From Gammaproteobacteria bacterium (GTDB lineage: Bacteria; Pseudomonadota; Gammaproteobacteria; CBDBNL01; JAAOII01), in assembly GCA_965209035.1 (NCBI GenBank), contig OZ242372.1, forward strand, positions 116,497 to 180,496: a stretch of 64,000 bases of DNA. The letters are read 5' to 3'. Positions 7,215 to 46,553 of the stretch are shown piece after piece (within the stretch, counting starts at the first letter, position 1; each line of letters begins with the position of its first letter). A model generated the notes under the pieces. It ran no database searches, was not told the DNA's origin, and saw only the letters and a list, made by a program, of their open reading frames with translations. A program made the position numbers and the translations under genes.

Positions 7215-7318
7215 TGTATAGTCCCACCCATTTTCGGACTTTTGGTGTTTTTGCAAGAACCGGAAAGACGAGAGTTATTGTGGGAAAAACAAACTAAAAC
7301 CTGCGACCCAATCCATTC
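7215..7318 (-). mobile_element. Diverged solo copy of the IS481-like terminal module (transposase 3'-end fragment)
   Basis: TGTATAGTCCCACCCATTTTCGGACTTTTGGTGTTTTTGCAAGAACCGG... aligns with the reverse complement of the end of the full element (26320-26451). The track ORF 7013-7375(-) merely reads through it (..EWIGSQV..SCKNTKSPKMGGTIH vs EWLAWYN..FLQKQKKSRNGWDHT). Confidence 0.6.
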
Positions 7319-7371: not shown

Positions 7372-8328
7372 TCACTCCCGGGCGGGTTTGTTTTTTGACG
7401 GATCGTATTTGTCTATTTCTTTAATAATCCAATTGTTTTCTTTAAAAAATTTGTTGCGGGAATACAGACGCGCCAAAAAACGCAGTGTTGATAACGAACC
7501 CACTTCTTCTATCATTGATGAATGGTCGTCTGTCGCGACAATATTTTCTTCAACAAAAGAAAAAATTTCTTGTTGAATCTTATAAAGATCCCCCGTATGT
7601 TTTTTGAATAAGTTCAGTGCATGTAATTTCTTACCCCATTCTTTCCAATGGTCGTCAACATATTTTTTAATGCCACTTTCTTCCAGCATTTCCCAGCCAA
7701 GTTCGGTCATATCAAGAGGAGAAAACTCTGTGGCAGCCAGTACTTTTATGGCATCACCCTTCTTGCCCAAAAGCATCAACTGCAAAGTTTTGCAAACAGA
7801 CCTGAAACCTTTTTTTGTTACTTCCTCAAACTCTTTTTGTTCTGTTCTGACTCTCGCAATATCCTCTTTGAGTTCCGTTCTGACTCTCGCAATATCCTCT
7901 TTTTGTCCTATTCTGACTTCAGTAATTTCTTCTTTGACTTCCTCTATATTAACTTCTATTTTGTGATTTGTTTTTCCCACTGCCTGGTATAACGAAACTA
8001 TGGCATATTCGCCGATCAGACCAAGAATGAACACAAAAAAAGCCAACAGAAAAAGAATAAACCAACTGCCCTCCGGTATCAATTTGTATGTAAGGGCGGA
8101 ATCGTAAAGGGTAAGAGAAGAGAATACTGTAAATACAATCAATCCGATTGCACACAAGATGTATGTCATAACGCTTATTTTTGCTTCCGACTGACCAATG
8201 TTATATTGCTTGGCCGGTTTTTCCTCGACTGTGTTGTAGTCTATATCCTCTTTTGTCATTTTTCTTAAATTCATAAAATAACCTATAAAATTATAACATC
8301 TTTTGCTGTATTTTTTACGCATCAGCAA
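7372..8328 (-). CDS. Hypothetical membrane protein (2-TM hairpin, heptad/coiled-coil repeats, conserved C-terminal domain); diverged fifth member of the family arrayed at 41419-45427
   Basis: Full-length similarity to the array proteins: GLIVFTVFSSLTLYDSALTY..WFILFLL..LGLIGEYAIVSLY vs GLIVFSVLSTMTVYDTAITY..WFVILLI..IGFIGEYAFISIY, and C-terminal SPLDMTELGWEMLEESGIKKYVDDHWKEW...FFKENNWIIKEIDKYDP vs SPLNMTDIGEAILESSGLMEYVDEHREEW...FFKENHWDINDIDKYEP. Internal repeat KEDIARVRTE x2. The start codon is uncertain. Confidence 0.7.
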   Translation of the reverse strand: MLMRKKYSKRCYNFIGYFMNLRKMTKEDIDYNTVEEKPAKQYNIGQSEAKISVMTYILCAIGLIVFTVFSSLTLYDSALTYKLIPEGSWFILFLLAFFVFILGLIGEYAIVSLYQAVGKTNHKIEVNIEEVKEEITEVRIGQKEDIARVRTELKEDIARVRTEQKEFEEVTKKGFRSVCKTLQLMLLGKKGDAIKVLAATEFSPLDMTELGWEMLEESGIKKYVDDHWKEWGKKLHALNLFKKHTGDLYKIQQEIFSFVEENIVATDDHSSMIEEVGSLSTLRFLARLYSRNKFFKENNWIIKEIDKYDPSKNKPARE

Positions 8329-11720: not shown

Positions 11721-11726
11721 TGTTAT

Positions 11727-13844: not shown

Positions 13845-13857
13845 CTTTTAAAGATAA

Positions 13858-16206: not shown

Positions 16207-16216
16207 TAGGGCCTCT

Positions 16217-16486: not shown

Positions 16487-16497
16487 TTGTCGCCCTT

Positions 16498-16818
16498 TTA
16501 GCCGACAAAGCCGGCAAACAATGCCGGTAATGTCGTTATCATCAGTAGTACCAATGCCGCTGCGCCCAACTTGAACGCTCGGCCTTTTATGTCCTCGGCA
16601 TCCTTCCCGACCATCAAATCCTTGGCAAATAAAACGGCAAAAAGTGCCCATATCCCCCAGAGAAAAGAAGTCAAGAAGTTAAGTGCTCCGCTCATAAAAC
16701 GCCCAAGCGTTTGAGTCGCGTCGCCTCCGCTTTGTAAGTATTCCGGTAAGGTACCTACCGCGAGAACGATTGTCTCGTAGGGCATCACACCGATAATACC
16801 AATAAGAATAATAAACAT
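16498..16818 (-). CDS. virB2: T4SS VirB2/TrbC-like pilin
   Basis: 106 aa with a hydrophobic leader and two further hydrophobic segments (FLTSFLWGIWALFAVLFA, LGAAALVLLMITTLPALFAGFV). It is the first gene of the operon. Confidence 0.5.
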   Translation of the reverse strand: MFIILIGIIGVMPYETIVLAVGTLPEYLQSGGDATQTLGRFMSGALNFLTSFLWGIWALFAVLFAKDLMVGKDAEDIKGRAFKLGAAALVLLMITTLPALFAGFVG

Positions 16819-17011: not shown

Positions 17012-17710
17012 TTATAACAGGCCCTCTTCACTGAACGACAAGGTTTTGCTGCCGCCAATGATGAAGTGATCCAACAACCGTATATCCACCAATTCACAAG
17101 CATCTTTTACCCGCCTTGTGATGCGTTTGTCCGCCTCGCTTGGTTCCGTGAAGCCGGAAGGATGATTATGGGCGATGACAATGGCAGCCGCATTAACCTT
17201 AAGGGCATAACGAATAATCTCGCGCGGATAGACACGCGCGGAATCAATAGTCCCTTGGAACATCTCACGGAACTCCAATATGCGATGCTTGTTATCCATG
17301 AAAATGCAAGCAAAAACCTCATTGCCTCTGCTGCCAAGGACATGCGACAAGTATTCGCGCATGCGTTTAACGGAGGTAATGGGGTCGGTTTCGCGGCGTA
17401 AAATGTCTTCCAAGTAGCGGCGCGCCAATTCTATGATGGCGCGAAACTGCACATACTTGGCTTCGCCCAGCCCTTTTTCTTGACAAAACTCTTTCTTGCT
17501 GCTTTCCAACAACCATTTGAGTCCGCGCTTGTCTATGAGTTCTTCCGCCAATGCCATCACGCCCTTGCCGGTATAGCCGACACGCAGAAAGATTGCGAGA
17601 AGTTCTTTGTCGCTCAGATGACGGGCACCATACCGCAAGAGTTTTTCTCGCGGTCTGTCTTCGCCGGGGCGCCAATGGTTATTCTGAGGTGCTCTGCCGT
17701 CGGTGGACAT
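17012..17710 (-). CDS. radC: RadC-family JAB/MPN-domain protein
   Basis: RPREKLLRYGARHLSDKELLAIFLRVG...; JAMM motif IAHNHPSGFTEPSEAD. Confidence 0.9.
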   Translation of the reverse strand: MSTDGRAPQNNHWRPGEDRPREKLLRYGARHLSDKELLAIFLRVGYTGKGVMALAEELIDKRGLKWLLESSKKEFCQEKGLGEAKYVQFRAIIELARRYLEDILRRETDPITSVKRMREYLSHVLGSRGNEVFACIFMDNKHRILEFREMFQGTIDSARVYPREIIRYALKVNAAAIVIAHNHPSGFTEPSEADKRITRRVKDACELVDIRLLDHFIIGGSKTLSFSEEGLL

Positions 17711-19037
17711 CCGGACGTGCCTGCTCTATGAGTTTTCCGGCATAGTCTGGGACGTCGTTTTTTAGCCTCTCGCCGCCTATCATTCTGCCTCTTTTAATTT
17801 TTCTTTCCATAGTGGATGGTATTTTGTTGAAAGCATTTTATTTTTTTAATGAAACTCCTTGTCAATTGTTTTAGTTTTTGTAACCGCCGTAACCGTATAG
17901 CACGCATCCGCATGCACCGCAATCCGCGGGTGATGCGTAATACAAATAACTTGCGTGTTGCCGCCCAAGAGCGCAAGAGTTTTTCTCGCGGTTGCCTTCG
18001 CCGGGGCGCCAATGGTTATTCTGAGGTGCTCTGCCGTCAGTGGACATCCGGACGTGCCTGCTCTATGAGTTTGCCGGCATAGTCCGGGACGTCGTTTTTT
18101 AGCCTCTCGCCGCCTATCATTCTGCCTCTTTTAATTTTTCTTTCCATAGTTGATGGTATTTTGTTGAAAGTATTTTAATGGAACTCCTTGTCAATTGTTT
18201 TAGTTTTTGTAACCGCCGTAACCGTATAGCACGCATCCGCATGCACCGCAATCCGCGGGTGATGCGTAATACAAATAACTTGCGTGTTGCCGCCCAAGAG
18301 CGCAAGAGTTTTTCTCGCGGTTGCCTTCGCCGGGGCGCCAAGGGTTATTTTGAGATACTCCTCTGCCGTCAGTGGACATCCGGACGTGCCTGCTCTGTGA
18401 GTTTGCCGGCATAGTCCGGCACGTCGTTTTTTAGCCTCTCGCCGCCTATCATTCTGCCTCTTTTAATTTTTCTTTCCATAGTTGATGGTATTTTGTTGAA
18501 AGCATTTTAATGGAACTCCTTGTCAATTGTTTTAGTTTTTGTAACCGCCGTAACCGTATAGCGCGCATCCGCAGGTGCCATAATCCGCGGGTGATGCGTA
18601 ATACAAATGACTTGCGTGTTGCCGCCCAAGAGCGCAAGAGTTTTTCTCGCGGTTGCCTTCGCCGGGGCGCCAAGGGTTATTTTGAGATACTCCTCTGCCG
18701 TCAGTGGACATCCGGACGTGCCTGCTCTATGAGTTTGCCGGCATAGTCCGGCACGTCGTTTTTTAGCCTCTCGCCGCCTATCATTCTGCCTCTTTTAATT
18801 TTTCTTTCCATAGTTGATGGTATTTTGTTGAAAGCATTTTAATGGAACTCCTTGTCAATTGTTTTAGTTTTTGTAACCGCCGTAACCGTATAGCGCGCAT
18901 CCGCAGGTGCCATAATCCGCGGGTGATGCGTAATACAAATAACTTGCGTGTTGCCGCCCAAGAGCGCAAGAGTTTTTCTCGCGGTTGCCTTCGCCGGGGC
19001 GCCAAGGGTTATTTTGAGATACTCCTCTGCCGTCAGT
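17705..19037. repeat. Tandem array of 4 units (337, 332, 332, 332 bp), each made of a radC 5' fragment plus a degenerate recN 3' end
   Basis: The anchor GGACATCCGGACGTGCC recurs at 17705, 18042, 18374, 18706 and 19038. The units carry frameshifted recN C-terminal coding sequence and the ATGTCCACTGA recN-stop/radC-start overlap. Confidence 0.9.
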
Positions 19038-20697
19038 GGACATCCGGACGTGCCTGCTCTATGAGTTTGCCGGCATAGTCAAGCACGTCGTTTTTTAGCC
19101 TCTCGCCGCCTATCATTCTGCCAATTTCAGTTTTTCTTTCCATAGTTGAAAGTATTTTAATGGAACTCGTTGTTAAATTTTCTTTTTTGGTTTTTGTAAC
19201 CGCATAGTGCGCATCCGCATGCACCGCAATCTGCGGATGATGCGTAATACAAATGACTTGCGTGTTGCCGCCCAAGAGTGCCAGCATCTTGCCAACAACC
19301 GATGCCACACCGCTGCTGATTCCGCTGTCCACCTCGTCAAACACCAGGCACGGAATGGCGGAGTTGCGCGCCGCCACCAGGTTCACCGCCAATGCAATGC
19401 GGGACAATTCGCCGCCGGAAGCAATGCGTCGCATCGGCAACAGCAGGGATTCCGGCCCTGTGGCAAGCATAAATTCTATCACGCCGTCCCCGTTTTCGGT
19501 CAGTCTTTCCAGCCGTGAGAATTGAGTGGCAAACTTACATTCCATGTCCAGTTCGCGCAGTTTGGCTGCCACTTCTTGGTCAAAGCGGGCCGCCGCCAAT
19601 CTGCGTTTCTCGGTCAGGCTGTGCGCCAGTTCGCGGCATTTCTCCTCCGTTTCTTTTTCCATACGCGTCAAGTTGCCTATCTTTTCTTCATTGCTGTCCA
19701 GTTCTTCCAATTCTTTCTGTTTGCTTAATTTAAGAGATTCCAAGTTACCCGGCTCCGTCCGATGTTTGCGCGCCAACCGGTGAATTGCACTCATCTTGGC
19801 GTCCAGGCCCGCAAAATCAAGTGTCTCGCTGTTGGCTTTGTCCGCGTAAGATTGTAATTCCGCACGCAAGTTTTCCAACAGTTTGCGGCCACTTTCCGGT
19901 TGGCTCGCCAGTTCACTTAAAAATTTGTCGTTTGCCTGTTGCAATTTACTTTGTAATTCGTTAAGTTGTTGGGTTAAACCGGAACTGTCTTGGTTGTCCA
20001 GTATTTGCATACAGTCTTCCAGGGACTGGTTGAGAATCTCGCTATTATTGCTCAAGCGATGCTGTTCTTCCAGTTCCGTATAGTCCTTTTGCGACAAAGC
20101 GATTTCTTCCAACTCCGCCAGTTCGTGTCTGAGGAGGCTGAGCATGCGCTCGTCCGTTTGGCCTGTTTGCCGTCTTGTCGTGAGTTCGCGCCGCAATTCC
20201 AGCAGTTTTTCATACACGGCGCGGTATGCCGCAGATTCTTTGCCGGTTCCGCCGAAATCGTCAATGAACCGGATGTGCGTGTGCCGTTGCATCAGAAGTT
20301 GGTGGGCATGCTGTCCTTGCAAACTAATCAGTAAGCTTGCCACTTCTTTCATATCTTGCAAGGTAGCGGGCACTCCGTTAATAAAAGACTTTGAACCGCT
20401 GCCGCTTAAACTTCTGCGCAAAATGCATTCGTTATCCTGAAACAGGTCGCGTTTTTCCAGCCAAGCGCGAACTTGAGGTAACTTTTCCGTTTCAAAAATG
20501 GCGCTAATTTCGGCGCGAACTTTTTGGTTGCGGATCAGAGAGGGGCTGCCGCGTTCGCCGAGTGTCAAACCAAGTGCGTTCAAAATGATAGACTTGCCGG
20601 CACCCGTTTCGCCCGTAATCACATTCATTGCGGGATGAAACTCCAGTTCCAGTTTGTCAACCAGAACAAAATTACCGACCGAGAGTTGGGTTAGCAT
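19033..20697 (-). CDS. recN: DNA repair protein RecN
   Basis: 554 aa. N-terminal MLTQLSVGNFVLVDKLELEF...ITGETGAGKS, a long coiled-coil middle region, and C-terminal SGGELSRIALA...LVFDEVDSGI. Confidence 0.92.
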   Translation of the reverse strand: MLTQLSVGNFVLVDKLELEFHPAMNVITGETGAGKSIILNALGLTLGERGSPSLIRNQKVRAEISAIFETEKLPQVRAWLEKRDLFQDNECILRRSLSGSGSKSFINGVPATLQDMKEVASLLISLQGQHAHQLLMQRHTHIRFIDDFGGTGKESAAYRAVYEKLLELRRELTTRRQTGQTDERMLSLLRHELAELEEIALSQKDYTELEEQHRLSNNSEILNQSLEDCMQILDNQDSSGLTQQLNELQSKLQQANDKFLSELASQPESGRKLLENLRAELQSYADKANSETLDFAGLDAKMSAIHRLARKHRTEPGNLESLKLSKQKELEELDSNEEKIGNLTRMEKETEEKCRELAHSLTEKRRLAAARFDQEVAAKLRELDMECKFATQFSRLERLTENGDGVIEFMLATGPESLLLPMRRIASGGELSRIALAVNLVAARNSAIPCLVFDEVDSGISSGVASVVGKMLALLGGNTQVICITHHPQIAVHADAHYAVTKTKKENLTTSSIKILSTMERKTEIGRMIGGERLKNDVLDYAGKLIEQARPDVH

Positions 20698-22713: not shown

Positions 22714-22903
22714 TTATAAGAACTTTATTCTATCCCTTTGCAAAATTGTATGATCCCACCCAGTTCCGGACTTTTGTTGTTTTTGCAAGAACCGGATTGG
22801 GCCGGATTGGGATAGTTGTTTGAGAGCATAATGAGGACGTTCGCGATGATACCAAGCCAACCATTCGATGAGTTTGGCGTTGTGTCAATGCCGACGTGCA
22901 AAT
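22714..22903. repeat. Left copy of the 190-bp direct target duplication flanking the IS1634-like element
   Basis: By eye it is identical to 24890-25079. It contains the IS481-like end module at 22747-22882. Confidence 0.9.
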
Positions 22904-24889
22904 CTTGACTTCGGAAAGAAATTATTATATTTTTAAAAAACCTTGTATTTTCAAGGTTTTTTTAGGATCTTTAATAGTGTATAATTAAAAGCATAATATG
23001 TATATTCGCGAATTCACTCGAAAAAACGGGCAGGTTCTGTCCGTGGTTTTTTCTTTTTATCGGTCCAAGCACAAGCAGCCGAACAATATGACTCTGTATA
23101 CCAGCCAACCGGTGGAAGCCGACAGTGCGGAATATGCGGTGGTGCGGGCCGAGATGGAGCAACGCTGCCGCCGCTTGGAGAAGGAATTAAGACAAAGCAC
23201 CTCACTGAATGCGTTTTTAACAAAACATCAAAAGGTGGTGGGCTGTGGTCGTGGCCATGCTATCCGGCGCAACGACCGGGTGGATGACGATGGACCGGGG
23301 GCACTTTCGGCCTTAAGAACTTTAGGTGCGCGCAGTTACGGTCTGCCCTATGTCATGGAGAAATTATTTGCGTCCATGGGCTTGGATACGTTGGTGGCAC
23401 CGCGGCGCCAACGGCTGAATGCCTGTTTGCGGGTGCTCAGTTGGGGGCGGCTGACGGCCGAGCGGATTAGTAAACGGCAATTGTCGCAGCTGTTGGAAGA
23501 AGAATATGGGATCCACTGGTCTGAGGACAGCATGTACAAAGCGATGGATCATTTGGATGATGCCGAGATTGAGCGCATTCAGATGCGGGTGGCACGTTCC
23601 AATTTGGCATTACTTAACCAAAAGACGGTGCAGCTGTTGCTGTATGACACGACGACCTTTTATTTTGAATCGGTGCAGGCGGATGACTTCCGCTGCAGAG
23701 GTTGGTCCAAAGACGGCAAAGCCCATCGGACGCAGGTGGTCTTTGGGATGTGGATGACGCCTTGTGGCTTGCCGTTGGGCTACAAACTATTTACCGGTAA
23801 GACCGCGGATGTGTCGACCTTGTTGCCGGCTTTGGACGAGATGCAGCGGCGGCTGGGGGCCCAAAAGACGGTGGTGATTGCTGACAACGGCCTCCTCAGT
23901 GAAGACAACTTGGCGGCGATTACGGCGGCCGGGCATGCGTTTGTCATGGCCTGTTCGCCACGCAAGTTACCCAAAGAGATCCGCACGGCGGTCTACAACT
24001 ATGATTTTGAAGGCGGGGCCCGCATCTTTGAGATCGGCTTGCTACCACCCGCGCGCACCCAACTTGCCGACAACGACCGCCCTCTGGTGGCACGCAATTA
24101 TTATGCCAACTTCTCCTCCAAGCGCGCCCGCCGCGATCTCCATCAGCTGCATCTGGCCTTGAAGCGGGCCAAAAACAGTACCGGCCGCAACCACCAAGCT
24201 CTGCGGGGGATTGCCTGTCCCGATATCCGTAAGTTCTTATCCAACAACGGCATCACCACACTGAACCCCACAGCCATCAACCGGGCGATGCAAGAAATCG
24301 GTCTCTATGGCGTGCAGGCCTCGCCCAATATTGACTACCAAACCGCCTACACTTACTACAAACAACTGTATGCCATTGAACACGGCTTCCGGGATCTTAA
24401 AAGTGATCTGCAAATCCGCCCGACCTTCCATTGGAAACCCGAGCGCATCCGCGCCCATTTCGCCCTCTGCTATCTGGCGTTTGCCGCCATCCGCCGCTTG
24501 CGGTATGTCCTCCGCCAACAAAAGCCCGCACCCACCACCGTGTGGACCACCGAAATGCTGCCGTTCACCGATCTAGATGCCCGACCGCAGCCGCCGCAAA
24601 AAAACAAGACCGAGGAAATCGTCACCACCAAGAAGATCCTCAAAGAACTGCGCAACTTCAAAGCAACTATCCAACGCAATCCCGTTGGCAACTATTACAG
24701 CAGCCCACACCAACTCACCCCGGGACAGCAACGCATTTTACAAGCCGTTCAACTAAAACCCAAACAACCTGCTCTGTTGGATCACAAACACTAAGCGCAA
24801 GAAGCAAAGTCGCAAGGGCTCATAGTGTATAAAAACGGCCCGCAAACCCTTATAAAAACAGGGTTTTTTAAGAAGTTTCCGAAGTCAAG
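22904..24889 (+). mobile_element. IS1634-family (IS4-related) insertion sequence, 1986 bp
   Basis: 14-bp perfect terminal inverted repeats: CTTGACTTCGGAAA at 22904-22917 and TTTCCGAAGTCAAG at 24876-24889. Single 598-aa DDE transposase ORF. Subterminal hairpins with T-runs lie at about 22936-22965 and 24853-24870. The element is flanked by a 190-bp direct repeat. Confidence 0.85.
22998..24794 (+). CDS. IS1634-family DDE transposase
   Basis: 598 aa. The N-terminal MYIREFTRKNGQ... is typical of this family. DDE candidates are LLLYDTTTFYFE, VVIADNGLLS and YAIEHGFRDLK (E-x6-K). Confidence 0.8.
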   Translation: MYIREFTRKNGQVLSVVFSFYRSKHKQPNNMTLYTSQPVEADSAEYAVVRAEMEQRCRRLEKELRQSTSLNAFLTKHQKVVGCGRGHAIRRNDRVDDDGPGALSALRTLGARSYGLPYVMEKLFASMGLDTLVAPRRQRLNACLRVLSWGRLTAERISKRQLSQLLEEEYGIHWSEDSMYKAMDHLDDAEIERIQMRVARSNLALLNQKTVQLLLYDTTTFYFESVQADDFRCRGWSKDGKAHRTQVVFGMWMTPCGLPLGYKLFTGKTADVSTLLPALDEMQRRLGAQKTVVIADNGLLSEDNLAAITAAGHAFVMACSPRKLPKEIRTAVYNYDFEGGARIFEIGLLPPARTQLADNDRPLVARNYYANFSSKRARRDLHQLHLALKRAKNSTGRNHQALRGIACPDIRKFLSNNGITTLNPTAINRAMQEIGLYGVQASPNIDYQTAYTYYKQLYAIEHGFRDLKSDLQIRPTFHWKPERIRAHFALCYLAFAAIRRLRYVLRQQKPAPTTVWTTEMLPFTDLDARPQPPQKNKTEEIVTTKKILKELRNFKATIQRNPVGNYYSSPHQLTPGQQRILQAVQLKPKQPALLDHKH

Positions 24890-25079
24890 TTATAAGAACT
24901 TTATTCTATCCCTTTGCAAAATTGTATGATCCCACCCAGTTCCGGACTTTTGTTGTTTTTGCAAGAACCGGATTGGGCCGGATTGGGATAGTTGTTTGAG
25001 AGCATAATGAGGACGTTCGCGATGATACCAAGCCAACCATTCGATGAGTTTGGCGTTGTGTCAATGCCGACGTGCAAAT
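24890..25079. repeat. Right copy of the 190-bp direct target duplication
   Basis: By eye it is identical to 22714-22903. Confidence 0.9.
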
Positions 25080-26453
25080 AAATGCGCCTATTCAGATGCT
25101 TACCCGATCAATAAGATCTATTTTAGGATTTATATTGACAGGATGATTGCATGATCTCATAAAGGTTCTGGACTCTGAGTTTGGTATTGTGCGTCCTCAG
25201 ATCAAGCAGCCGGATGTTCTGTCGGACGGGTCGAAAATAGATCCGGCAACGGGTCTCCGGTATGTGGAGCTAGATGAATGAAACGGGCAAGAAAGATGGA
25301 TAGCTGTTTTGCTCTCACCGCCGCAGACAGCGGAGGCTTGTTGTTGATAAAACTGTCTAGGTGTATCCGCTGGCAAGACGGTACGGTGTGCGAGAGCGGC
25401 TGCACCGCGGAGGTGATTTGAAATGAGAGGAACACGTTTACACTACATTGGTTATCGCGTGCGCGGTTTCAATAAAATGGTGGTTTTAGCAAACAAATAT
25501 TCAAACATGTCTAAAACCACCAAAATCAAACTGGACACCTTAGCGTTCGCGCGCAAACATGGTGTCGCGGCCGCGTTGGATCATGCCAGGATCAGTCGTG
25601 CTACATTCTACGAGTGGCAGCGGCGTTTCCGTGAAGGCGGGGTCGATGAACTGGCGAACAACTATGGGTATCAGCCCAAGCGGTCCAACACCTGGCCACC
25701 GGCACTGATTACCAAGATCCGATCTTGGCGACAAGAGCGTCCGAACATCGGTGCCGGTAAACTGGTCTGCTTGTTACCCGAATGGTGTCAGCAGCGCGGG
25801 CTGCCGCTGCCCAGCCAATCAACGCTCTCTCGCATCATTGCCGATGACCCGGATAAGATGCGGTGCAAACCATCGCGGTCCGTGCCGAAACGCCTGCGGC
25901 AAGGTGCTCCGCGCGAGCGCAAGGACATCCGCTTTGTTGCGGGCCGGAGAGGTGAATGTGTTGCCTTTGATACGCTCGTCCGCATCGTCGATGGCCGGCG
26001 CTTTTATTGGCATGTCGGCATTGATCTATTTTCCCGCTTCTCACTGGTCAGTGTCGACACCTCGGCTGCTTCGGCCAGTTCCGCCCAGCTCTTTACCGCC
26101 ATGCAAAACATACTCGGCACTCGGATCGAAAAAGTCCTCACCGATAATGGCAGTGAGTTCGCCAAAGACTTTCACCGGGTCGTGACCGCAAACGGCAGCA
26201 CCCACTGGTATACCTATCCAAGGAAACCGCAAATGAATGCACACTGCGAACGGTTTAATCGCACTCTCTGGGAAGAGTTCGGTTGTCATATGCGGCATCT
26301 CTTGGTTAAGGATATGCCAGCATTCAACGCCAAACTCATCGAGTGGTTGGCTTGGTATAATCTGGAACGTCCCCATTATGCTCTCAAACAACTCTCGCCA
26401 ATCCAGTTTTTGCAAAAACAAAAAAAGTCCAGAAATGGGTGGGATCATACAAT
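24921..26453 (+). mobile_element. IS481-family element with ~135-bp imperfect terminal inverted copies
   Basis: The left end ATTGTATGATCCCACCCAGTTCCGG... (24921-25058) is the reverse complement, with scattered mismatches and a 12-bp duplication, of the right end ...CCAGAAATGGGTGGGATCATACAAT (about 26320-26453). The right end contains the 3' end of the transposase gene. Confidence 0.6.
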
Positions 26454-26487
26454 GATTAACAAAAGATTCTCAATTCCCGTAAGATAG
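25423..26487 (+). CDS. IS481-family transposase (HTH plus rve integrase core)
   Basis: ISRATFYEWQRRFREGGVDEL (HTH); DTLVRIVDGRRFYWHVGIDLFSR...LTDNGSEF...PRKPQMNAHCERFNRTLWEEF (DDE/rve). More likely starts are the ATGs at 25477 or 25507 (MSKTTKIKLD...). The last ~11 codons read past the element end. Confidence 0.8.
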   Translation: MRGTRLHYIGYRVRGFNKMVVLANKYSNMSKTTKIKLDTLAFARKHGVAAALDHARISRATFYEWQRRFREGGVDELANNYGYQPKRSNTWPPALITKIRSWRQERPNIGAGKLVCLLPEWCQQRGLPLPSQSTLSRIIADDPDKMRCKPSRSVPKRLRQGAPRERKDIRFVAGRRGECVAFDTLVRIVDGRRFYWHVGIDLFSRFSLVSVDTSAASASSAQLFTAMQNILGTRIEKVLTDNGSEFAKDFHRVVTANGSTHWYTYPRKPQMNAHCERFNRTLWEEFGCHMRHLLVKDMPAFNAKLIEWLAWYNLERPHYALKQLSPIQFLQKQKKSRNGWDHTMINKRFSIPVR

Positions 26488-38828: not shown

Positions 38829-39635
38829 TCAGTCTTTTTTGGTGTTTCTTTTCGTCGGATTGGGTGACAGTTCGCCAACTCTCTTTTTAAATTTCTGATT
38901 AAATTTCTTAGTAAAATTTTTGGAGTTCCCGGAACTCGTAATGCCAGCCACGAGAATACCCGCCTCATACAACGCATACAAAGGAAGTGCCAACATCAGT
39001 TGCGAGAAGATGTCCGGCGGGGTCAATAGCATCCCGAAGACAAAGCACAGGACAACAACATACCTGCGATAACCGCGCAAAGTCTGCAACGATACCAGAC
39101 CAACCCGCACCGCCAAGAAAACGACAATCGGCAACTCAAATGCCAAACCAAACACCAAAATCATACGCAGGACAAAAGTCAGATAACGATTGATGTCCGT
39201 CATGATCAGAATACCTTCCGGACCCATTCTTTGGAAGAATGCCAATGCCAAAGGCAATACGCCGTAATAAACAAATAGTCCGCCCAAAAAGAATAAGAAG
39301 ACCGTCACCACAAAGAGCGGCAACACAAAAAAACGCTCGGCACGGTAAAGGCCGGGCATAACAAACATCCAAACCTGATACAAAAAGACGGGAGCGGAAA
39401 GACAGACCGACACCCAGAGTGCCAGCCGCAAGGGAGCAATAAACGGCGAAGCAACATCCACAGCCACCAGATGCCCGTCGGCAGGCAAACTCTGCAATAG
39501 TGGCACCGCCAACAAAGCATAGAGTTCTCGTGCATATATAACAGCAACAACAAATATTAAGACCCATACCAGAAGTGCGCGCAAGCATCTGGAGCGCAAC
39601 TCGGTAAGATGTTTTATGAGCGGAACGGTTGACAA
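38829..39635 (-). CDS. tatC: Sec-independent translocase TatC
   Basis: HLTELRSR..., six TM segments, LLTPPDIFSQ. Confidence 0.9.
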   Translation of the reverse strand: MSTVPLIKHLTELRSRCLRALLVWVLIFVVAVIYARELYALLAVPLLQSLPADGHLVAVDVASPFIAPLRLALWVSVCLSAPVFLYQVWMFVMPGLYRAERFFVLPLFVVTVFLFFLGGLFVYYGVLPLALAFFQRMGPEGILIMTDINRYLTFVLRMILVFGLAFELPIVVFLAVRVGLVSLQTLRGYRRYVVVLCFVFGMLLTPPDIFSQLMLALPLYALYEAGILVAGITSSGNSKNFTKKFNQKFKKRVGELSPNPTKRNTKKD

Positions 39636-39679
39636 GAGAGAACGGGTTTTTCGTAAGTGTTAGGCAATATTAGGCGGGG

Positions 39680-39946
39680 TTAGGCACCCGGCGTCTTCTT
39701 TTTGTTTGTCGCCACATTCTTTTTGCCGGTTTGCTTTGATTTTGGCTTTGTTTGGCCCGAATTGAGCATCTCATCCAGACGCACCTGGCGATCTATCTCA
39801 TCGGTTACCCGCGTGTAAAGAATACGGATTTTGCGTAAAATGAGACCGGTTTGGCGAATCAAAACAAATAATTGGCGCGGCCCCAACACCAACAAAGCAA
39901 CCGCCAGGATTACCAGGATCTCAAAAAATCCTGTCGTCCCCAACAC
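39680..39946 (-). CDS. tatB: Sec-independent translocase TatB
   Basis: MLGTTGFFEILVILAVALLVLGPRQL...; lies directly after tatA. Confidence 0.8.
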   Translation of the reverse strand: MLGTTGFFEILVILAVALLVLGPRQLFVLIRQTGLILRKIRILYTRVTDEIDRQVRLDEMLNSGQTKPKSKQTGKKNVATNKKKTPGA

Positions 39947-40207
39947 CTATTTTTTTGCGGAGGTTTTCTTAACCTTGGATTTAAAGGAGCCCGCGGAATG
40001 CGGAGATTTGTTCCGCTTGTTCTTTTTCCGTTGATGTCCCTCGCGCGGCTCCTCATGTTCATCCTCGCCCTCTCCTTCCATAGAATGACGAAACCCTTTA
40101 ATGGCCTTGCCCAGATCTCTGCCGAGTGCCGGTAATCTCCCGGCACCAAACAGAATGCCGATGACCAACAAAATGAGTACGATTTGCCAGATACTGATAC
40201 CGCCCAT
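39947..40207 (-). CDS. tatA: Sec-independent translocase TatA
   Basis: MGGISIWQIVLILLVIGILFGAGRLPALGRDLGKAIKGFR. Confidence 0.88.
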   Translation of the reverse strand: MGGISIWQIVLILLVIGILFGAGRLPALGRDLGKAIKGFRHSMEGEGEDEHEEPREGHQRKKNKRNKSPHSAGSFKSKVKKTSAKK

Positions 40208-40245
40208 AAATTAATTATAACCGATTTAAGGTATGTATATGTATT

Positions 40246-40833
40246 CTAATGAACATCGCGGCGGGCATGATTTTTATCTCTTTTCGTCCGTTGCCCGGAC
40301 GAGGTACGGCTTTCCAACTCACTTTCAATATCCGCATATTCCACACCGTGTGAGCCGCATATTGCCAAAATAAAAAGAAACAATGTGCCGTAGTTATCGG
40401 AAACTTTTTTATATTGCTTCAAACTTCCGTCATACTTGACGGACTGCGAAATCGCGTCTCCCAGGTTATGACCCAGAGCCCGATAAAAGAAACCCGAATC
40501 GTCCTTGTCCGTTTTTTTCAAGCGTTCAACACTTTGATTAACACTTTTACTGTCAAACATTAAAATGTGCTCAAGAGACAGGTTCATAAACACCGTCAAA
40601 ACTAACAGATGAAACAGCGCATCGGCCGCCTCGCAGATGACCTGCTCCTTGTTGCCCGAAGCAGCTGCAACCATAAACTCCGTGATTTCTTCTCCCAACT
40701 TATCCAGGATTTTGTTGAGACCCGCATCAAATAACCTTGCCGTATAAGAGTTTTTCGGCAGGGTCTGTTTGCGATTCTTAAGCAACCCTTCCAAATCGGT
40801 CAGTAACGCAAAGTTGTATTCTTTATCTTTCAT
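40246..40833 (-). CDS. hisE: Phosphoribosyl-ATP pyrophosphatase (HisE) with an extra C-terminal ~100 aa
   Basis: LEGLLKNRKQTLPKNSYTARLFDAGLNKILDKLGEEITEFMVAA...EAADALFHLLVL. The second half (..NLGDAISQSV..GTLFLFILAICGSHGVEYADIESEL) may be a degenerate second all-alpha NTP-PPase repeat; that reading is weak. Confidence 0.75.
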   Translation of the reverse strand: MKDKEYNFALLTDLEGLLKNRKQTLPKNSYTARLFDAGLNKILDKLGEEITEFMVAAASGNKEQVICEAADALFHLLVLTVFMNLSLEHILMFDSKSVNQSVERLKKTDKDDSGFFYRALGHNLGDAISQSVKYDGSLKQYKKVSDNYGTLFLFILAICGSHGVEYADIESELESRTSSGQRTKRDKNHARRDVH

Positions 40834-40844
40834 ATCCTTTCATA

Positions 40845-41219
40845 TCACACCCCCTGCCCGGCACATTTGCGAAAAAAGCATGTCGGTCTGCCGGTATGGC
40901 AAGCACCGCTTCCCCGCTGCTCCACCGACAACAACAAGGCATCGCCGTCGCAGTCCAGCCGCAATTCGCACAGTCTTTGAACAGCACCCGATGTCTCGCC
41001 CTTATACCAAAGAGTGCGGCGCGAACGCGACCAAAAAACCGTCCGCCTCTCTTCCAAACTTTTTTCAAGAGAATTGCGATTCATCCAGGCAAGCATCAGA
41101 ACCCGTTGTGTTTTATGGCACTGAACAATTGCCGGCACCAAACCCGCCGAGTCCCACACAACAGCATCAAGGAATTTTGTTTGAGACAAAGTCTCCGTTT
41201 CTTCATTACGATTTTCCAT
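40845..41219 (-). CDS. hisI: Phosphoribosyl-AMP cyclohydrolase
   Basis: LVPAIVQ...[11 protein letters not shown]...FWSRSR..LW.KGETSG..Q...[26 protein letters not shown]. Confidence 0.9.
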
Positions 41220-41262
41220 TTCAAAGTTATTATACAGTTTTTTTGCGGTTGCATAATCTCAT

Positions 41263-41386
41263 TGTATGGTCCCACCCATTTCCAGACTTTTGTTGTTTTT
41301 GCAAAAATTGGATCGGCGAGAGTTGTTTGAGAGCATAATAGAGGCGTTCGCGATGATACCAAGCCAACCACTCGATGAGTTTGGCG
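41263..41386 (-). mobile_element. Solo copy of the IS481-like terminal module
   Basis: TGTATGGTCCCACCCATTTCCAGACTTTTGTTGTTTTTGCAAAAATTGGATCGGCGAGAGTTGTTTGAGAGCATAAT...GATACCAAGCCAACCACTCGATGAGTTTGGCG aligns with 24923-25058 and with the reverse complement of 26320-26451. It ends 32 bp before the stop of the first array gene. Confidence 0.75.
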
Positions 41387-41418
41387 AAGACCGCTCAATG
41401 AGTCTAGCCCCTTAATTG

Positions 41419-42216
41419 TTACTTACGTTTGGGTTTGGGTTCGTATTTGTCTATATCATTAATATCCCAATGATTCTCCTTGAAAAACTGATTACGCAGA
41501 TACAGACCGGCCAACAGATGCACCGACTGCACAGTGCCCACCGCTTTGATTATTCCCTTCGTCTCTTCGGTTGCCGATATATTCCTTTCAACAAAAGCGT
41601 AGATCACTTCCGCAACTTGATAAAGATCGCCTTGCTCTTCTTGTTCCGAGTTAAGTTTTTTTAGATCCTTATTCCATTCTTCCCGATGCTCGTCCACATA
41701 TTCCATCAGCCCGCTACTTTCCAGTATCGCTTCACCGATGTCGGTCATATTGAGAGGAGATGCTTTTTGAGAATATAAAGCGCGTTCTTCTTCAACCGAA
41801 TCTCTCTTTGCCATGTTTCCCAAAACAGTAAGAATTTTTACGGTATCACGATGCATATCTTCTCTTAACTCTCTTTTATCTTCTCTTAACTCTCTTTTAA
41901 CTTCTTTTATTTCTGTTTTAACTTCCTTTATTTCTGTTTTGACTTCTTTGATTTCTGTTTGGACTTCTTGTTGACTCACTTCCAACCGCTTGATACCCTT
42001 ATATATTGAAATGAACGCATATTCGCCAATGAAACCAATCACAAGTGATAACAAAAATATCAAAAGTATCACAAACCAATTGTTTGCCGAAACTTGCCCG
42101 TATGTAATCGCCGTGTCGTAAACAGTCATCGTGGATAAAACGGAAAATACAATAAGCCCCAAGGCCGCCGTGAATTTCGCACGACCGCTTAATTTAAGAT
42201 CTGTGCGTTTATTCAT
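41419..42216 (-). CDS. 2-TM / heptad-repeat / C-terminal-domain protein, array copy 1
   Basis: The track ORF is 267 aa from the TTG at 42222. The ATG at 42216 has GGAGGAG 9 nt upstream. Heptads (EIKEVKT)x3 plus (RELREDK)x2. The tail is ..KPKRK. Confidence 0.75.
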   Translation of the reverse strand: MNKRTDLKLSGRAKFTAALGLIVFSVLSTMTVYDTAITYGQVSANNWFVILLIFLLSLVIGFIGEYAFISIYKGIKRLEVSQQEVQTEIKEVKTEIKEVKTEIKEVKRELREDKRELREDMHRDTVKILTVLGNMAKRDSVEEERALYSQKASPLNMTDIGEAILESSGLMEYVDEHREEWNKDLKKLNSEQEEQGDLYQVAEVIYAFVERNISATEETKGIIKAVGTVQSVHLLAGLYLRNQFFKENHWDINDIDKYEPKPKRK

Positions 42217-42414
42217 CGGCAATCACTCCTCCTCAAATTCATAAAATAGTGTCCTCTATCCTCCCGCATTTGTTATGATGTTCCCCTTTTTAATGAACTG
42301 CCTTGCCATAACAATATTTACCGCAAAATCTTTTAGAAATTTTATCATTATATAATTCCAAACTCAGCGTCCGGAACCTTTCTGAGATTATGCATCTTAT
42401 TTTCTTTTCTTTCT

Positions 42415-43263
42415 TTAATGTTGATTGCGTTTGGATTTGCGTTCAGGTTTGGGTTCGTATTTGTCTATATCATTAATATCCCAATGATTCTCCTTGAAAA
42501 ACTGATTACGCAGGTACAGACCGGCCAACAGATGCACCGACGGCACAGTGCCCACCGCTTTGATTATTCCCTTCGTCTCTTCGGTTGCCGATATATTCCT
42601 TTCAACAAAAGCGTAGATCACTTCCGCAACTTGATAAAGATCGCCTTGCTCTTCTTGTTCCGGGTTGAGTTTTTTTAGATCCTTATTCCATTCTTCCCGA
42701 TGCTCGTCCACATATTCCATCAGCCCGCTACTTTCCAGTATCGCTTCACCGATGTCGGTCATATTGAGAGGAGATGCTTTTTGAGAATATAAAGCGCGTT
42801 CTTCTTCAACCGAATCTCTCTTTGCCATGTTTCCCAAAACAGTAAGAATTTTTACGGTATCACGATGCATATCTTCTCTTAAATCTGTTTTAACTTCTTT
42901 TATCTCCCCTCTTAACTCTGTTTTAACTTCTTTTATTTCTGTTCTAACTTGTTTCATTTCTGTTTGGACTTCTTTTATTTTTGTTTGGACTTCTTTTATT
43001 TCTGCTTGGACTTCTTGTTGGCTCACTTCCAACCGCTTGATACCCTTATATATTGAAATGAACGCATATTCGCCAATTAAACCAATCACAAGTGATAACA
43101 AAAATATCAAAAGTATCACAAACCAATTGTTTGCCGAAACTTGCCCGTATGTAATCGCCGTGTCGTAAACAGTCATCGTGGATAAAACGGAAAATACAAT
43201 AAGCCCCAAGGCCGCCGTGAATTTCGCACGACCGCTTAATTTGAGATCTGTGCGTTTATTCAT
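42415..43263 (-). CDS. 2-TM / heptad-repeat / C-terminal-domain protein, array copy 2
   Basis: The track ORF is 284 aa, with the same RBS/ATG layout. Heptad block EIKEVQTKIKEVQTEMKQVRTEIKEVKTELRGEIKEVKTDLRED. Confidence 0.75.
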   Translation of the reverse strand: MNKRTDLKLSGRAKFTAALGLIVFSVLSTMTVYDTAITYGQVSANNWFVILLIFLLSLVIGLIGEYAFISIYKGIKRLEVSQQEVQAEIKEVQTKIKEVQTEMKQVRTEIKEVKTELRGEIKEVKTDLREDMHRDTVKILTVLGNMAKRDSVEEERALYSQKASPLNMTDIGEAILESSGLMEYVDEHREEWNKDLKKLNPEQEEQGDLYQVAEVIYAFVERNISATEETKGIIKAVGTVPSVHLLAGLYLRNQFFKENHWDINDIDKYEPKPERKSKRNQH

Positions 43264-43462
43264 CGGCAATCACTCCTCCTCAAATTCATAAAATAGTGTC
43301 CTCTATCCTCCCGCATTTGTTATGATGTTCCCCTTTTTAATAAACTGCCTTGCCATAACAATATTTGACCACAAAATCTTTTAGAAATTTTATCATTATA
43401 TCATTCCAAACTCAGCGTCCGGAACCTTTCTGAGATTATGCATCTTATTTTCTTTTCTTTCT

Positions 43463-44332
43463 TTAATGTTGATTGCGTTTGGATTTGCGTTCAGGTTTGG
43501 GTTCGTATTTGTCTATATCATTAATATCCCAATGATTCTCCTTGAAAAACTGATTACGCAGGTACAGACCGGCCAACAGATGCACCGACTGCACAGTGCC
43601 CACCGCTTTGATTATTTTCTGCGTCTCTTCGGTTGCCGATATATTCTTTTCAACAAAAGCGTAGATCGCTTCCGCTATTTGATAAAGATCGCCTTGCTCT
43701 TCTTGTTCCGGGTTGAGTTTGCTTAGTTCCCTATTCCATTCTTCCCGATGTTCGTCCACATATTCCATCAGCCCGCTACTTTCCAGTATCGCTTCACCGA
43801 TGTCGGTCATATTGAGAGGAGATGCTTTTTGAGAATATAAAGCGCGTTCTTCTTCAACCGAATCTCTCTTTGCCATGTTTCCCAAAACAGTAAGAATTTT
43901 TACGGTATCACGATGCATATCTTCTCTTAAATCTGTTTTAACTTCTTTTATCTCCCCTCTTAACTCTGTTTTAACTTCTTTTATTTCTGTTCTAACTTCT
44001 TTTATTTCTGTTCTAACTTGTTTCATTTCTGTTTGGACTTCTTTTATTTTTGTTTGGACTTCTTTGATTTCTGTTTGGACTTCTTGTTGGCTCACTTCCA
44101 ACCGCTTGATACCCTTATATATTGAAATGAACGCATATTCGCCAATGAAACCAATCACAAGTGATAACAAAAATATCAAAAGTATCACAAACCAATTGTT
44201 TGCCGAAACTTGCCCGTATGTAATCGCCGTGTCGTAAACAGTCATCGTGGATAAAACGGAAAATACAATAAGTCCCAAGGCCGCCGTGAATTTTGCACGA
44301 CCGCTTAATTTGAGATCTGTGCGTTTATTCAT
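43463..44332 (-). CDS. 2-TM / heptad-repeat / C-terminal-domain protein, array copy 3
   Basis: The track ORF is 291 aa, one heptad more than copy 2. It carries distinct substitutions in the C-terminal domain (NRELSKLN, YQIAEAIYAFVEK, TQKIIK). Confidence 0.75.
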   Translation of the reverse strand: MNKRTDLKLSGRAKFTAALGLIVFSVLSTMTVYDTAITYGQVSANNWFVILLIFLLSLVIGFIGEYAFISIYKGIKRLEVSQQEVQTEIKEVQTKIKEVQTEMKQVRTEIKEVRTEIKEVKTELRGEIKEVKTDLREDMHRDTVKILTVLGNMAKRDSVEEERALYSQKASPLNMTDIGEAILESSGLMEYVDEHREEWNRELSKLNPEQEEQGDLYQIAEAIYAFVEKNISATEETQKIIKAVGTVQSVHLLAGLYLRNQFFKENHWDINDIDKYEPKPERKSKRNQH

Positions 44333-44530
44333 CGGCAATCACTCCTCCTCAAATTCATAAAATAGTGTCCTCTATCCTCCCGCATTTGTTATGATGTTCC
44401 CCTTTTTAATAAACTGCATTGCCATAACAATATTTACCGCAAAATCTTTTAGAAATTTTATCATTATATAATTCCAAACTCAGCGTCCGGAACCTTTCTG
44501 AGATTATGCATCTTATTTTCTTTTCTTTCT

Positions 44531-45421
44531 TTAATGTTGATTGCGTTTGGATTTGCGTTCAGGTTTGGGTTCGTATTTGTCTATATCATTAATATCCCAA
44601 TGATTCTCCTTGAAAAACTGATTACGCAGGTACAGACCGGCCAACAGATGCACCGACTGCACAGTGCCCACCGCTTTGATTATTCCCTTCGTCTCTTCGG
44701 TTGCCGATATATTCCTTTCAACAAAAGCGTAGATCACTTCCGCAACTTGATAAAGATCGCCTTGCTCTTCTTGTTCCGAGTTAAGTTTTTTTAGATCCTT
44801 ATTCCATTCTTCCCGATGCTCGTCCACATATTCCATCAGCCCGCTACTTTCCAGTATCGCTTCACCGATGTCGGTCATGTTGAGAGGAGATGCTTTTTGA
44901 GAATATAAAGCGCGTTCTTCTTCAACCGAATCTCTCTTTGCCATGTTTCCCAAAACAGTAAGAATTTTTACGGTATCACGATGCATATCTTCTCTTAAAT
45001 CTGTTTTAACTTCTTTTATCTCCCCTCTTAACTCTGTTTTAACTTCTTTTATTTCTGTTCTAACTTCTTTTATTTCTGTTCTAACTTGTTTCATTTCTGT
45101 TTGGACTTCTTTTATTTTTGTTTGGACTTCTTTGATTTCTGTTTGGACTTCTTTGATTTCTGTTTGGACTTCTTGTTGGCTCACTTCCAACCGCTTGATA
45201 CCCTTATATATTGAAATGAACGCATATTCGCCAATGAAACCAATCACAAGTGATAACAAAAATATCAAAAGTATCACAAACCAATTGTTTGCCGAAACTT
45301 GCCCGTATGTAATCGCCGTGTCGTAAACAGTCATCGTGGATAAAACGGAAAATACAATAAGTCCCAAGGCCGCCGTGAATTTTGCACGACCGCTTAATTT
45401 GAGATCTGTGCGTTTATTCAT
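44531..45421 (-). CDS. 2-TM / heptad-repeat / C-terminal-domain protein, array copy 4
   Basis: The track ORF is 298 aa, one heptad more than copy 3. Its 5' flank differs from the other three spacers. Confidence 0.75.
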   Translation of the reverse strand: MNKRTDLKLSGRAKFTAALGLIVFSVLSTMTVYDTAITYGQVSANNWFVILLIFLLSLVIGFIGEYAFISIYKGIKRLEVSQQEVQTEIKEVQTEIKEVQTKIKEVQTEMKQVRTEIKEVRTEIKEVKTELRGEIKEVKTDLREDMHRDTVKILTVLGNMAKRDSVEEERALYSQKASPLNMTDIGEAILESSGLMEYVDEHREEWNKDLKKLNSEQEEQGDLYQVAEVIYAFVERNISATEETKGIIKAVGTVQSVHLLAGLYLRNQFFKENHWDINDIDKYEPKPERKSKRNQH

Positions 45422-45886
45422 CGGCAATCACTCCTTCTCAAATTAATGTTTCTCTTTTTAATAAACTGCATTGCCATAATGATATCTTACCACAAAATCT
45501 TTTAGAAATTTTATCATTATATAATTTCAAACTCAGCGTCCGGAACCTTTCTGAGATCATGCACATCATGTATCGTCTCGCCCGGTTTTGGACTGTTGTA
45601 TGTGTTCTTTCCGTCAATGATCCGGTCGCACATGGTCGCACATGGCCGCACATGGCCGCACATGGCCGCCGTGCGTAACCCGGTCGTTTGCGATTAACAC
45701 GGATGAGCCGGCTGCCGCGTCTGCGATGGGGATCTTGAAGTCGGACGGATATTTCGGTTTTAGAAAAATTGGAAAAAAACAGCGGATAATGACATCAAAG
45801 CGGTCCCCGTTGCCTAAAATAAATGCAAATATGATTAATTTTTATTCGCACAACACTCAATTCAAAATTTAATTCAAACAAACGAT

Positions 45887-46225
45887 ATGACCAGAAGATG
45901 TGAAGTCACCGGTATGTTGCCTATGGCGGGGAACAATGTGTCTCATGCCAACAACAAGACCAAGCGGCGTTTCTTGCCTAACCTGCACAAACGCAGATTT
46001 TGGCACCCGGGACGCAATCAATTTATACGCTTACGGGTTTCCGCGCGGGGTATCCGCATGATCGACAAGTATGGCTTGGAGGAAGTATTATCCGCGCTTG
46101 AGTCCGGCCGCAAGTTCAAGAAACCGAAAAACCCGGTGCCCGAAACGGGCGCAAACCAGGCGTCCGAATCCGGCACAAACCCGCCGACAGCCGAATCCTC
46201 ATCGGAGGAATCAGTAAAAGAATAA
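45887..46225 (+). CDS. rpmB: 50S ribosomal protein L28 with an acidic, Ser-rich C-terminal extension
   Basis: [39 protein letters not shown]...; 112 aa. Confidence 0.9.
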
Positions 46226-46484: not shown

Positions 46485-46508
46485 ACTTCGTTTCCAAACT
46501 CTTTTTTT

Positions 46509-46553
46509 CGCGGTTTTTTCCGCGTTTTTCCCCGCGGTTTTCCCCGCGTTTTT
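46509..46553 (+). promoter_or_regulatory. Possible leader/attenuator-like element upstream of carA
   Basis: CGCGG-T6-CCGCG-T5-CCCCGCGG-T4-CCCCGCG-T5. There are four mutually complementary GC pentamers separated by U-tracts, about 110 nt upstream of the carA ATG. Confidence 0.25.

Follow-up and report, generated by a model that had tools for sequence, protein, structure and literature searches.

The Vlp and Vsa proteins of Mycoplasma, the streptococcal M and alpha-C proteins and the stalks of trimeric autotransporters are exported and surface-anchored, are under diversifying selection and are often switched on and off. The chlamydial Inc proteins carry a bilobed hydrophobic hairpin followed by a coiled coil, with both termini on the same side of the membrane. 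In Lpp, YscP, the phage tape-measure proteins and the tail of ZorA, helical length that comes in discrete repeat units could set a distance. SieB and Rex of lambda and SieA of P22 are small membrane proteins from early or immunity regions that serve the prophage in exclusion or abortive infection. Here we analyze a tandem array of four genes for a membrane-anchored coiled-coil protein, found in a stretch of 64,000 nucleotides (the window) from the genome of a gammaproteobacterium (contig OZ242372.1, positions 116,497 to 180,496). The array has points in common with each of these systems, and its proteins share a domain with an unnamed family of phage and prophage membrane proteins.

The best explanation that we can offer, and one on which we stand evenly balanced between belief and doubt, is that the array comprises four functional paralogs from a horizontally acquired family that is restricted to its lineage, and that these proteins face the cytoplasm and take part in conflicts with phages or with other mobile elements. 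An earlier note on this DNA had read the array as a contingency locus, in which slippage and unequal recombination vary the length or the antigenicity of a coiled-coil stalk; on that reading the stalk would be exposed at the surface.

Four near-identical genes and their close relatives

The four genes lie head-to-tail on the minus strand, between rpmB-rpmG/carAB (45887 onward) on one side and hisI-hisE-tatABC (38829-41219) on the other. Copy 4 (44531..45421) comes first in the order of transcription and is followed by copy 3 (43463..44332), copy 2 (42415..43263) and copy 1 (41419..42216), the last of the array; this is the arrangement that the earlier note had described. The genes are 94-99% identical to one another, the proteins of copies 2-4 are each 94-97% identical to that of copy 1, and the DNA units of the array, 93-100% identical, recur at intervals of 1014, 1048 and 1068 bp. 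Four units of about 1 kb that are this alike cannot be a product of chance.

Counted from the ATG, the proteins of copies 4, 3, 2 and 1 have 296, 289, 282 and 265 amino acids (aa). The ATG is preferred as the start because the GGAGGAG motif ends 9 nt before it, and only 3 nt before a TTG that lies two codons upstream. The lengths given earlier (298, 291, 284 and 267 aa) hold if that TTG is the start and fall by two residues from the better-supported ATG; in the same manner, the spacers of 192-193 bp become 198-199 bp. The stalks (RLE..DLRE) measure 68, 61, 54 and 43 residues in the same order. Within each gene Tandem Repeats Finder detected an array of 21-bp units on the minus strand: 6.8 units with 90% matches in copy 4 (45033..45174), which encode EIKEV(K/Q/R)T heptads, 5.8 units in copy 3 (43965..44085), 4.8 units in copy 2 (42917..43016) and 5.3 units in copy 1 (41859..41969). 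Both the alignment and the gene lengths of copies 2, 3 and 4 (849, 870 and 891 nt) bear out the claim that these copies step by exactly 21 nt, or one heptad unit. The unit added in copy 3 relative to copy 2 is located at a different site from the unit added in copy 4 relative to copy 3. Copy 1 has, as had been noted, a different heptad set with RELREDK units and a short tail (..KPKRK), compared with the long tail of copy 4 (..KPERKSKRNQH).

Close relatives are few. A word-indexed search of 5.8 billion proteins returned 12, all of them from the 2.18-Mb source contig or from one ENA metagenome, and none was found in the JGI metagenomes or in the GTDB species genomes. When 1.84 billion representatives were searched exhaustively with a profile, no more than two clusters matched over the full length. 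The source genome encodes three further members beyond the window, P0002 (286 aa), P0008 (290 aa) and P0010 (263 aa), and the family numbers at least eight copies in this lineage. The metagenome contig L003 holds three copies between rpmB and hisI, at the same site as the window array. The contigs L004 and L005 hold two copies between hisB and tatD (locus 2), and it is these genes that P0008 and P0010 resemble. P0002 has a stalk that begins like that of copy 4 and ends like that of copy 1, together with the copy 1 tail, and reads like the product of an unequal crossover. Other candidates were discarded: the matches to Bacteriovorax metagenome-assembled genomes (MAGs) in the scan of GTDB genomes cover the coiled coil only (query residues 83-158), P0013 is a repeat-only match, and tblastn against plasmids gave only coiled-coil matches in Vibrio and Aliivibrio.

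Tandem and near-identical units of about 1 kb are hard to assemble, and an assembly that had expanded one gene to four would give such a picture. The differences among the copies (1-6% of sites) fall in structured blocks and in-frame units, however, all four open reading frames (ORFs) are intact, an independent contig has three copies at the same site, and the source sequence is a single contig of 2.18 Mb. Given the intact ORFs, the structured in-frame differences and the independent contig, an assembly artefact is unlikely, and we allow it hardly any weight.

The host is a poorly sampled gammaproteobacterium, since its CarA has no relative of more than 65% identity and the next, at ~55%, are named Gammaproteobacteria MAGs. 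The GC content of the array is ~0.39, against ~0.49 for the window. At third codon positions (GC3) the family genes have 0.38-0.39, against 0.51-0.60 for every other gene tested, genes of insertion sequences (IS) and conjugation-like genes included. By this measure the family looks compositionally foreign and horizontally acquired.

The layout of the spacers is conserved as well. Those upstream of copy 3 (44333..44530), copy 2 (43264..43462) and copy 1 (42217..42414) contain, on the minus strand, a purine tract, an extended -10-like motif (TATAAT / TGATAAAAT), a leader of ~125 nt with an inverted repeat, and the GGAGGAG motif. The inverted repeat, with 29 nt between its arms, and the GGAGGAG 9 nt before the ATG are both present as first described; before copy 1 the arms are TTGTTATG (42314-42307) and CATAACAA (42277-42270). 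The region upstream of copy 4 (45422..45563, minus strand) has the same promoter-like block. Its leader is shortened and lacks the 3' arm of the inverted repeat, in agreement with the earlier note, and the missing length is 37 nt rather than about 45. The TATAAT/TGATAnAAT block is kept upstream of every copy, the first copies of the locus-2 arrays among them, except for the first gene of L003 (L003_1), which has a different upstream region with a TATAAT of its own. As each copy has its own conserved promoter-like element and leader, separate transcription is plausible, and we predict that the copies are probably transcribed in this way. Intrinsic terminators were not found between the copies, and a sigma-70 scan that required a -35 element gave nothing specific in the spacers.

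The 5' leader shows little sign of a conserved RNA structure. Folded as a single sequence it does no better than shuffled sequences (z -1.0), RNAalifold gave no convincing consensus, and Rfam gave no match even at an E of 1 or less. The stem of the inverted repeat is paired at 83% in 10 leaders, which is not above shuffled controls; it has no double-sided changes in that register, and a register shifted by 3 does equally well. Two further repeats were observed in these intergenic regions. The purine tract (AAAGA/AAAAG units) that follows each stop codon and precedes the promoter-like block of the next copy varies in length in the L003 spacers (10849-10874 and 11940-11984) and is uniform in the window. 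At 45627-45669, where rpmB and copy 4 diverge, a unit of 10 bp (CGCACATGGC) is repeated in tandem (4.3 copies with 96% matches).

Predicted topology and the C-terminal domain

Each protein starts with a short basic N-terminal tail (net charge +4 for residues 1-15), continues with a two-helix membrane hairpin, an unbroken alpha-helical coiled-coil stalk and an all-helical C-terminal domain (C-domain) of ~115 residues that ends in DIDKYEP, and closes with a Lys/Arg-rich tail. The hairpin (residues ~16-72) is a bilobed hydrophobic domain: two hydrophobic helices, the candidate transmembrane segments TM1 and TM2 (hydropathy peaks of 1.6 and 2.5), are joined by a 13-residue loop of uncharged and acidic residues (charge -1). 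In the AlphaFold2 (AF2) model of copy 4 the helical hairpin runs on as one helix to residue ~160; this full-length model is mediocre (predicted local distance difference test, pLDDT, of 64) and was used for secondary structure only. The stalk is made of heptads (EIKEVKT) and hendecads (EIKEVKTELRG), with Ile and Val at heptad positions a and d. The hendecad EIKEVKTELRG dominates at locus 2, and an 11-residue unit is found as well in a distant paralog in the window (7372..8259, minus strand, ~38-43% identical), which has the TM hairpin, 11-residue repeats (KEDIARVRTEL x2), the C-domain and a GC3 of 0.385.

The positive-inside rule places both termini in the cytoplasm. A cytoplasmic C-domain agrees with the fact that three proteins related to it, P0137, P0024 and P0131, have neither a TM segment nor a signal peptide. 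No lipobox, no outer-membrane anchor or beta-barrel domain and no secretion signal was seen in the window copies. The stalk and the C-domain are thus predicted to face the cytoplasm, and probably do so. The weak point of this topology is TM1, which is only moderately hydrophobic; were it not inserted, the C-domain would be periplasmic.

This marginal hydropathy is what a periplasmic arrangement would require. TM2 would then act as a type II anchor, and the stalk and C-domain would form an envelope-spanning spacer or a tether of the spanin kind, with a length that fits the width of the periplasm. The proteins do resemble the Rz-type i-spanins in having an N-terminal membrane anchor followed by a coiled coil, PHROG profiles of Rz-like spanins give weak matches to the TM and coiled-coil part (phrog_739, E 3.4e-8, residues 45-136), and phage relatives are encoded beside lysis genes. 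The spanin matches, however, cover only this generic segment, and the conserved globular C-domain is absent from Rz. The predicted orientation is the opposite one, and the window has no o-spanin partner, lysis cassette or lipoprotein partner. In the viral contig L027 (and, by eye, in the pattern of L035) a lipoprotein with a C-terminal TM already stands before the gene. Strong conservation of TM1 and its loop extends even to the paralog of 40% identity, and the C-domain homologs that lack a TM segment lack a signal peptide too. We regard a periplasmic location as decidedly improbable.

A bilobed hairpin that is followed by a coiled coil is also the arrangement of the chlamydial Inc proteins, to which the family has no sequence relationship. 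The copies could on this analogy be translocated effectors that insert in a host membrane, their coiled coils facing the host cytosol. The Lys/Arg-rich tail would suit such a role, as would a genome of ~2.2 Mb that is rich in IS elements and duplications, the TraC/VirB4-like cluster next to the distant paralog, and a homolog in a phage of the endosymbiont Megaira. Against it, phages and Bacteroidota contexts of a free-living type are common settings for the wider family. The window showed no type III secretion system, and its TraC-like cluster resembles a conjugative system (F-type) more than one that translocates effectors. The effector role appears very improbable on this balance.

The earlier note had not recognized the C-domain, and it has in fact no annotation in Pfam, NCBIfam or PADLOC. 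When the copies and 24-33 wider-family members were scanned with the models of these three collections, nothing beyond coiled-coil noise came up, and none of the models covered the C-domain. The Pfam and NCBIfam matches of the copies (ATP synthase b, EzrA, DivIC and FtsL type) were all below cut-off and in the coiled-coil region, with ATP-synt_B the best at 22.5 bits versus 28. The PHROGs gave, beside the spanin-like matches to the TM and coiled-coil part, only families of unknown function, and a sequence-profile search of the PDB found nothing below an E of 0.3. The model of the C-domain (pLDDT 84, predicted TM-score of 0.76) has seven helices, and a Foldseek search with it returned no match below an E of 0.4 in the PDB and BFVD; the top matches, bundles of the Mcl-1/BAG type (TM-score ~0.3), were rejected as chance.

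Sequence relatives of the C-domain do exist. The profile for the exhaustive search (A3) was built from the narrow family only, and ~30 of its 150 top matches hit the C-domain alone (profile positions ~156-272; E about 1e-9 to 2e-5; 1.84e9 representatives). These proteins of 145-250 aa mostly have one N-terminal TM segment and a short coiled coil before the domain. The motifs that are shared are SPLxLTxxG, (N)PYD(I/V)Q, AFxxG, IY(I/L)R(D/N) and DIDK(H/Y)(D/E)P, the last of which precedes a basic tail, and S9, P10, G17, Y55, R97 and D112 are invariant in 29 sequences that include the window copies. Judged by the profile matches and these motifs, the C-domain of the window proteins is part of a wider, unannotated and phage-associated family. 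The members in this unnamed phage and prophage family (the Megaira phage protein UXM65469.1, and those of IMG/VR contigs and Bacteroidota MAGs) share with the window proteins the helical C-domain with its motifs, the basic tail, and the membrane anchor with a coiled coil. The window proteins differ from them in the additional N-terminal TM segment that makes the hairpin, in a much longer stalk built of repeats, and in their chromosomal location, where the family forms tandem arrays; the phage members are single-copy.

Recombination among the copies and the constancy of stalk length

Compared with one another, the window copies are 98.7-100% identical in their N-terminal parts; compared with L003 these parts are 93-94% identical, and the flanking genes 93.2%. 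The window N-parts are far closer to each other than to L003, whose distance matches that of the flanks, so the copies have been homogenized within the genome. The C-domain has a different history. In its N-terminal part copy 3 is 100% identical to copy 4, whereas over alignment columns 170-310 it has the C-domain haplotype of L003_1 and the locus-2 genes of L004 and L005 (type A: NRELSKLNPEQ / YQIAEAIYAFVEK / TQKIIK), and copies 1, 2 and 4 have type B. Such discordance between N-part and C-domain is the mark of gene conversion or unequal crossing-over. Copy 3 does have, in both protein and nucleotide sequence, the mosaic substitutions that the earlier note had listed, and the note's suggestion of gene conversion is strengthened by the discordance at the level of modules.

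The two relatives differ in copy number, with four copies in the window and three in L003, as a locus of this kind was expected to do. They differ as well in order: the stalk lengths run 68-61-54-43 in the window and 54-68-61 in L003, which is a circular permutation. In both arrays the last copy carries the KPKRK tail beside an IS fragment, but on a different stalk. Unequal crossing-over between the units would give both the permuted order and the chimeric end copies.

The lengths themselves are less labile than had been proposed. Stalks of equal length from the window and L003 are 94-97.5% identical and in register (copy 2 with L003_1, at 97.5%, copy 3 with L003_3, and copy 4 with L003_2), and stalks at locus 2 range over 44-74 aa. 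Both lineages, with flanks that are ~93% identical, thus have the classes of 54, 61 and 68 aa in register, and these classes therefore predate their split. Stalk length appears stable rather than hypervariable, which weakens the case for a fast contingency locus. The ratio of nonsynonymous to synonymous differences per site (pN/pS) is mostly 0.05-0.6, with a value of 0.05 for copy 3 versus L003_1; the exception, 1.4 for copy 2 versus copy 3, rests on 13 differences. Values below 1 point to proteins under constraint, that is, to purifying selection.

These results bear directly on the contingency locus of the earlier note. Differences in whole 21-bp units, a copy number that differs between relatives and mosaicism are all that such a locus would be expected to display, and the size-variable surface proteins named at the outset resemble the window copies in that in-frame repeats alter their length and their paralogs recombine. 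The copies part from those proteins in other properties. They have no export or surface-anchoring signal, both termini are predicted to be inside, and relatives of the C-domain that have no TM segment have no signal peptide. The pN/pS values are below 1, and three stalk lengths persist in lineages ~7% diverged. No homopolymer or short repeat that could switch expression on and off was found in the promoter or the 5' coding region, and all the copies keep their promoter-like block and ribosome-binding site. Antigenic variation of the stalk is unsupported on these grounds, and we see only a slight chance that the array is a contingency locus. An array of coiled-coil genes of variable repeat length need not be an antigenic-variation locus.

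The differences among the copies and between the two arrays suggest how the locus may change. In-frame gain or loss of 21-bp units would alter the length of the stalk, unequal crossing-over of units of ~1.05 kb would change the copy number and make chimeric end copies, and gene conversion, as the discordant identities of the modules show, shuffles the N-terminal, stalk and C-terminal modules and homogenizes the copies within a genome. Whatever its function, the locus is a clear case of concerted evolution within a bacterial genome of small size, with module shuffling and a change of copy number by unequal crossing-over.

Phage-borne relatives and a putative role in mobile-element conflict

Relatives in the wider family are encoded on 24 IMG/VR viral contigs. 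The neighborhoods in which wider-family genes occur are of several kinds. In L027 the gene is directly downstream of genes for an amidase endolysin and then a lipoprotein with a C-terminal TM; the ORFs of L035 follow the same pattern, with its proteins read by eye and not scanned. In L017 the gene precedes a head protease. In L011-L014 it is at a divergent junction in the early region, beside RecT, an SbcC-like ATPase and an Apyc1-like gene. In L009 a member is in a variable region by Fic and kinase genes. Among GenBank phages, UXM65469.1 (178 aa) of the Megaira polyxenophila phage MAnkyphage_25.80 is a clear member, and its gene, the only one on its strand there, separates the exonuclease/Bet genes from a regulator/replication module; P0184 gave no match to the GenBank phages. 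A Fic-domain protein is encoded within one or two genes of a member in L009 and L010 (by Pfam) and in L015 and L016 (by a Fic motif recognized by eye).

Temperate phages often carry accessory genes that are expressed by the prophage at such positions. The placement beside recombination genes of the exo/bet type and regulators, or after a lysis cassette, is like that of SieB, Rex and SieA, to which the family is likened by description only. A C-domain family that is typical of phages and prophages, with single copies by lysis cassettes or in the early or immunity region, is the reason that we favor a role in mobile-element conflict, and we take the occurrence in these regions as a circumstantial hint of exclusion or defense. 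Under the proposed mechanism, some 9-13 nm would separate the C-domain from the inner membrane above it, a distance that would grow by about 1 nm with each heptad. The expanded family would act at the cytoplasmic face of the membrane, in superinfection exclusion or in sensing of the abortive-infection type, and stalk length together with a variable patch on the C-domain would set the specificity. The putative role in exclusion or defense against phages or mobile elements is a favored guess, in which our confidence is low.

Several points weigh against this proposal, in addition to the marginal hydrophobicity of TM1. No experiment or annotation links any member to a function. PADLOC returned only LeoA, JetC and LmuB matches that are coiled-coil noise (E 1e-5 or weaker), with no model common to 33 members; a PADLOC match to ZorA (E 0.008) was likewise discarded as noise. 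Adjacency to lysis and early genes is circumstantial, and other members are in ordinary chromosomal contexts, such as the purB-gene-comEC order of L007. Stable lengths and purifying selection fit a structural role of a housekeeping kind equally well.

Such a role, a cytoplasmic membrane tether or scaffold that acts at set distances and has no part in mobile-element conflict, would account for the purifying selection, the stable length classes and a chromosomal position conserved in two lineages. It sits poorly with an extremely narrow phyletic distribution, a foreign codon composition, the flanking IS fragments and a wider family that is borne by phages, and we judge it unlikely. The stalks could also constitute a graded set of spacers. 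In this explanation the stalks of 43, 54, 61 and 68 residues would each fix the depth under the inner membrane of a sensor or binding domain that derives from phages and has no known fold relatives. Recombination would re-pair stalk and C-domain variants, and exclusion or defense would be coded by length and in a combinatorial way; we rate it as distinctly improbable. The family does share with Lpp, YscP, the tape-measure proteins and the ZorA tail a length that comes in repeat units, and it has no homology to them.

If the guess of exclusion or defense is right, a domain that has no annotation or solved structure, and that is widespread among the phages of Bacteroidota and present in one of an endosymbiont, would become a candidate module of exclusion or defense. 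The array would then offer a natural series of coiled-coil lengths in steps of 1 nm, suited to asking whether distance from the membrane matters.

The genes that surround the array carry further traces of mobile elements. An intact transposase gene of an rve-type IS is at 25423-26487, and five dispersed 3'-end fragments of this IS (~65-138 bp) are found in the window and L003, directly downstream of family genes in two window cases. One fragment of ~128 bp (41259..41386, minus strand, 90.6% identical to the intact IS) directly follows copy 1, and another (7215..7279, minus strand) is downstream of the distant paralog. Two more (22745-22882 and 24921-25058) are direct repeats that flank a DDE_Tnp_1 transposase gene (22998-24794). 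The fifth, at 13061-13185 of L003, likewise comes after the last family copy. The distant paralog is at the 3' end of a minus-strand cluster (8473-16818), in which genes with no Pfam or NCBIfam match surround a TraC/VirB4-like ATPase of 782 aa (13861-16206; TIGR02746, E 2.6e-24). This cluster probably represents a module for conjugation or type IV secretion that has diverged.

Other repeats and rearrangements were observed in the window. A second large tandem duplication, of a 332-bp unit in 5.0 copies (94% matches), extends over 17634-19278, between radC (17012-17710) and recN (19033-20697); each unit repeats a segment like the 5' end of radC, so that small ORFs recur. The 3' part of rpmB has a 24-bp repeat in 2.3 copies (46129-46183) and encodes an L28 with an unusual C-terminal extension, and a 12-bp repeat (TTTTTTCCGCGG, 4.3 copies) is found upstream of carA, at 46502-46553. 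The his genes are split over the two family loci, with hisI-hisE-tatABC at one (40246-41219 in the window) and hisB by tatD at the other (3622-4221 in L004 and 8107-8706 in L005). An ancestral his-tat region may thus have been rearranged when arrays of the family recombined with one another.

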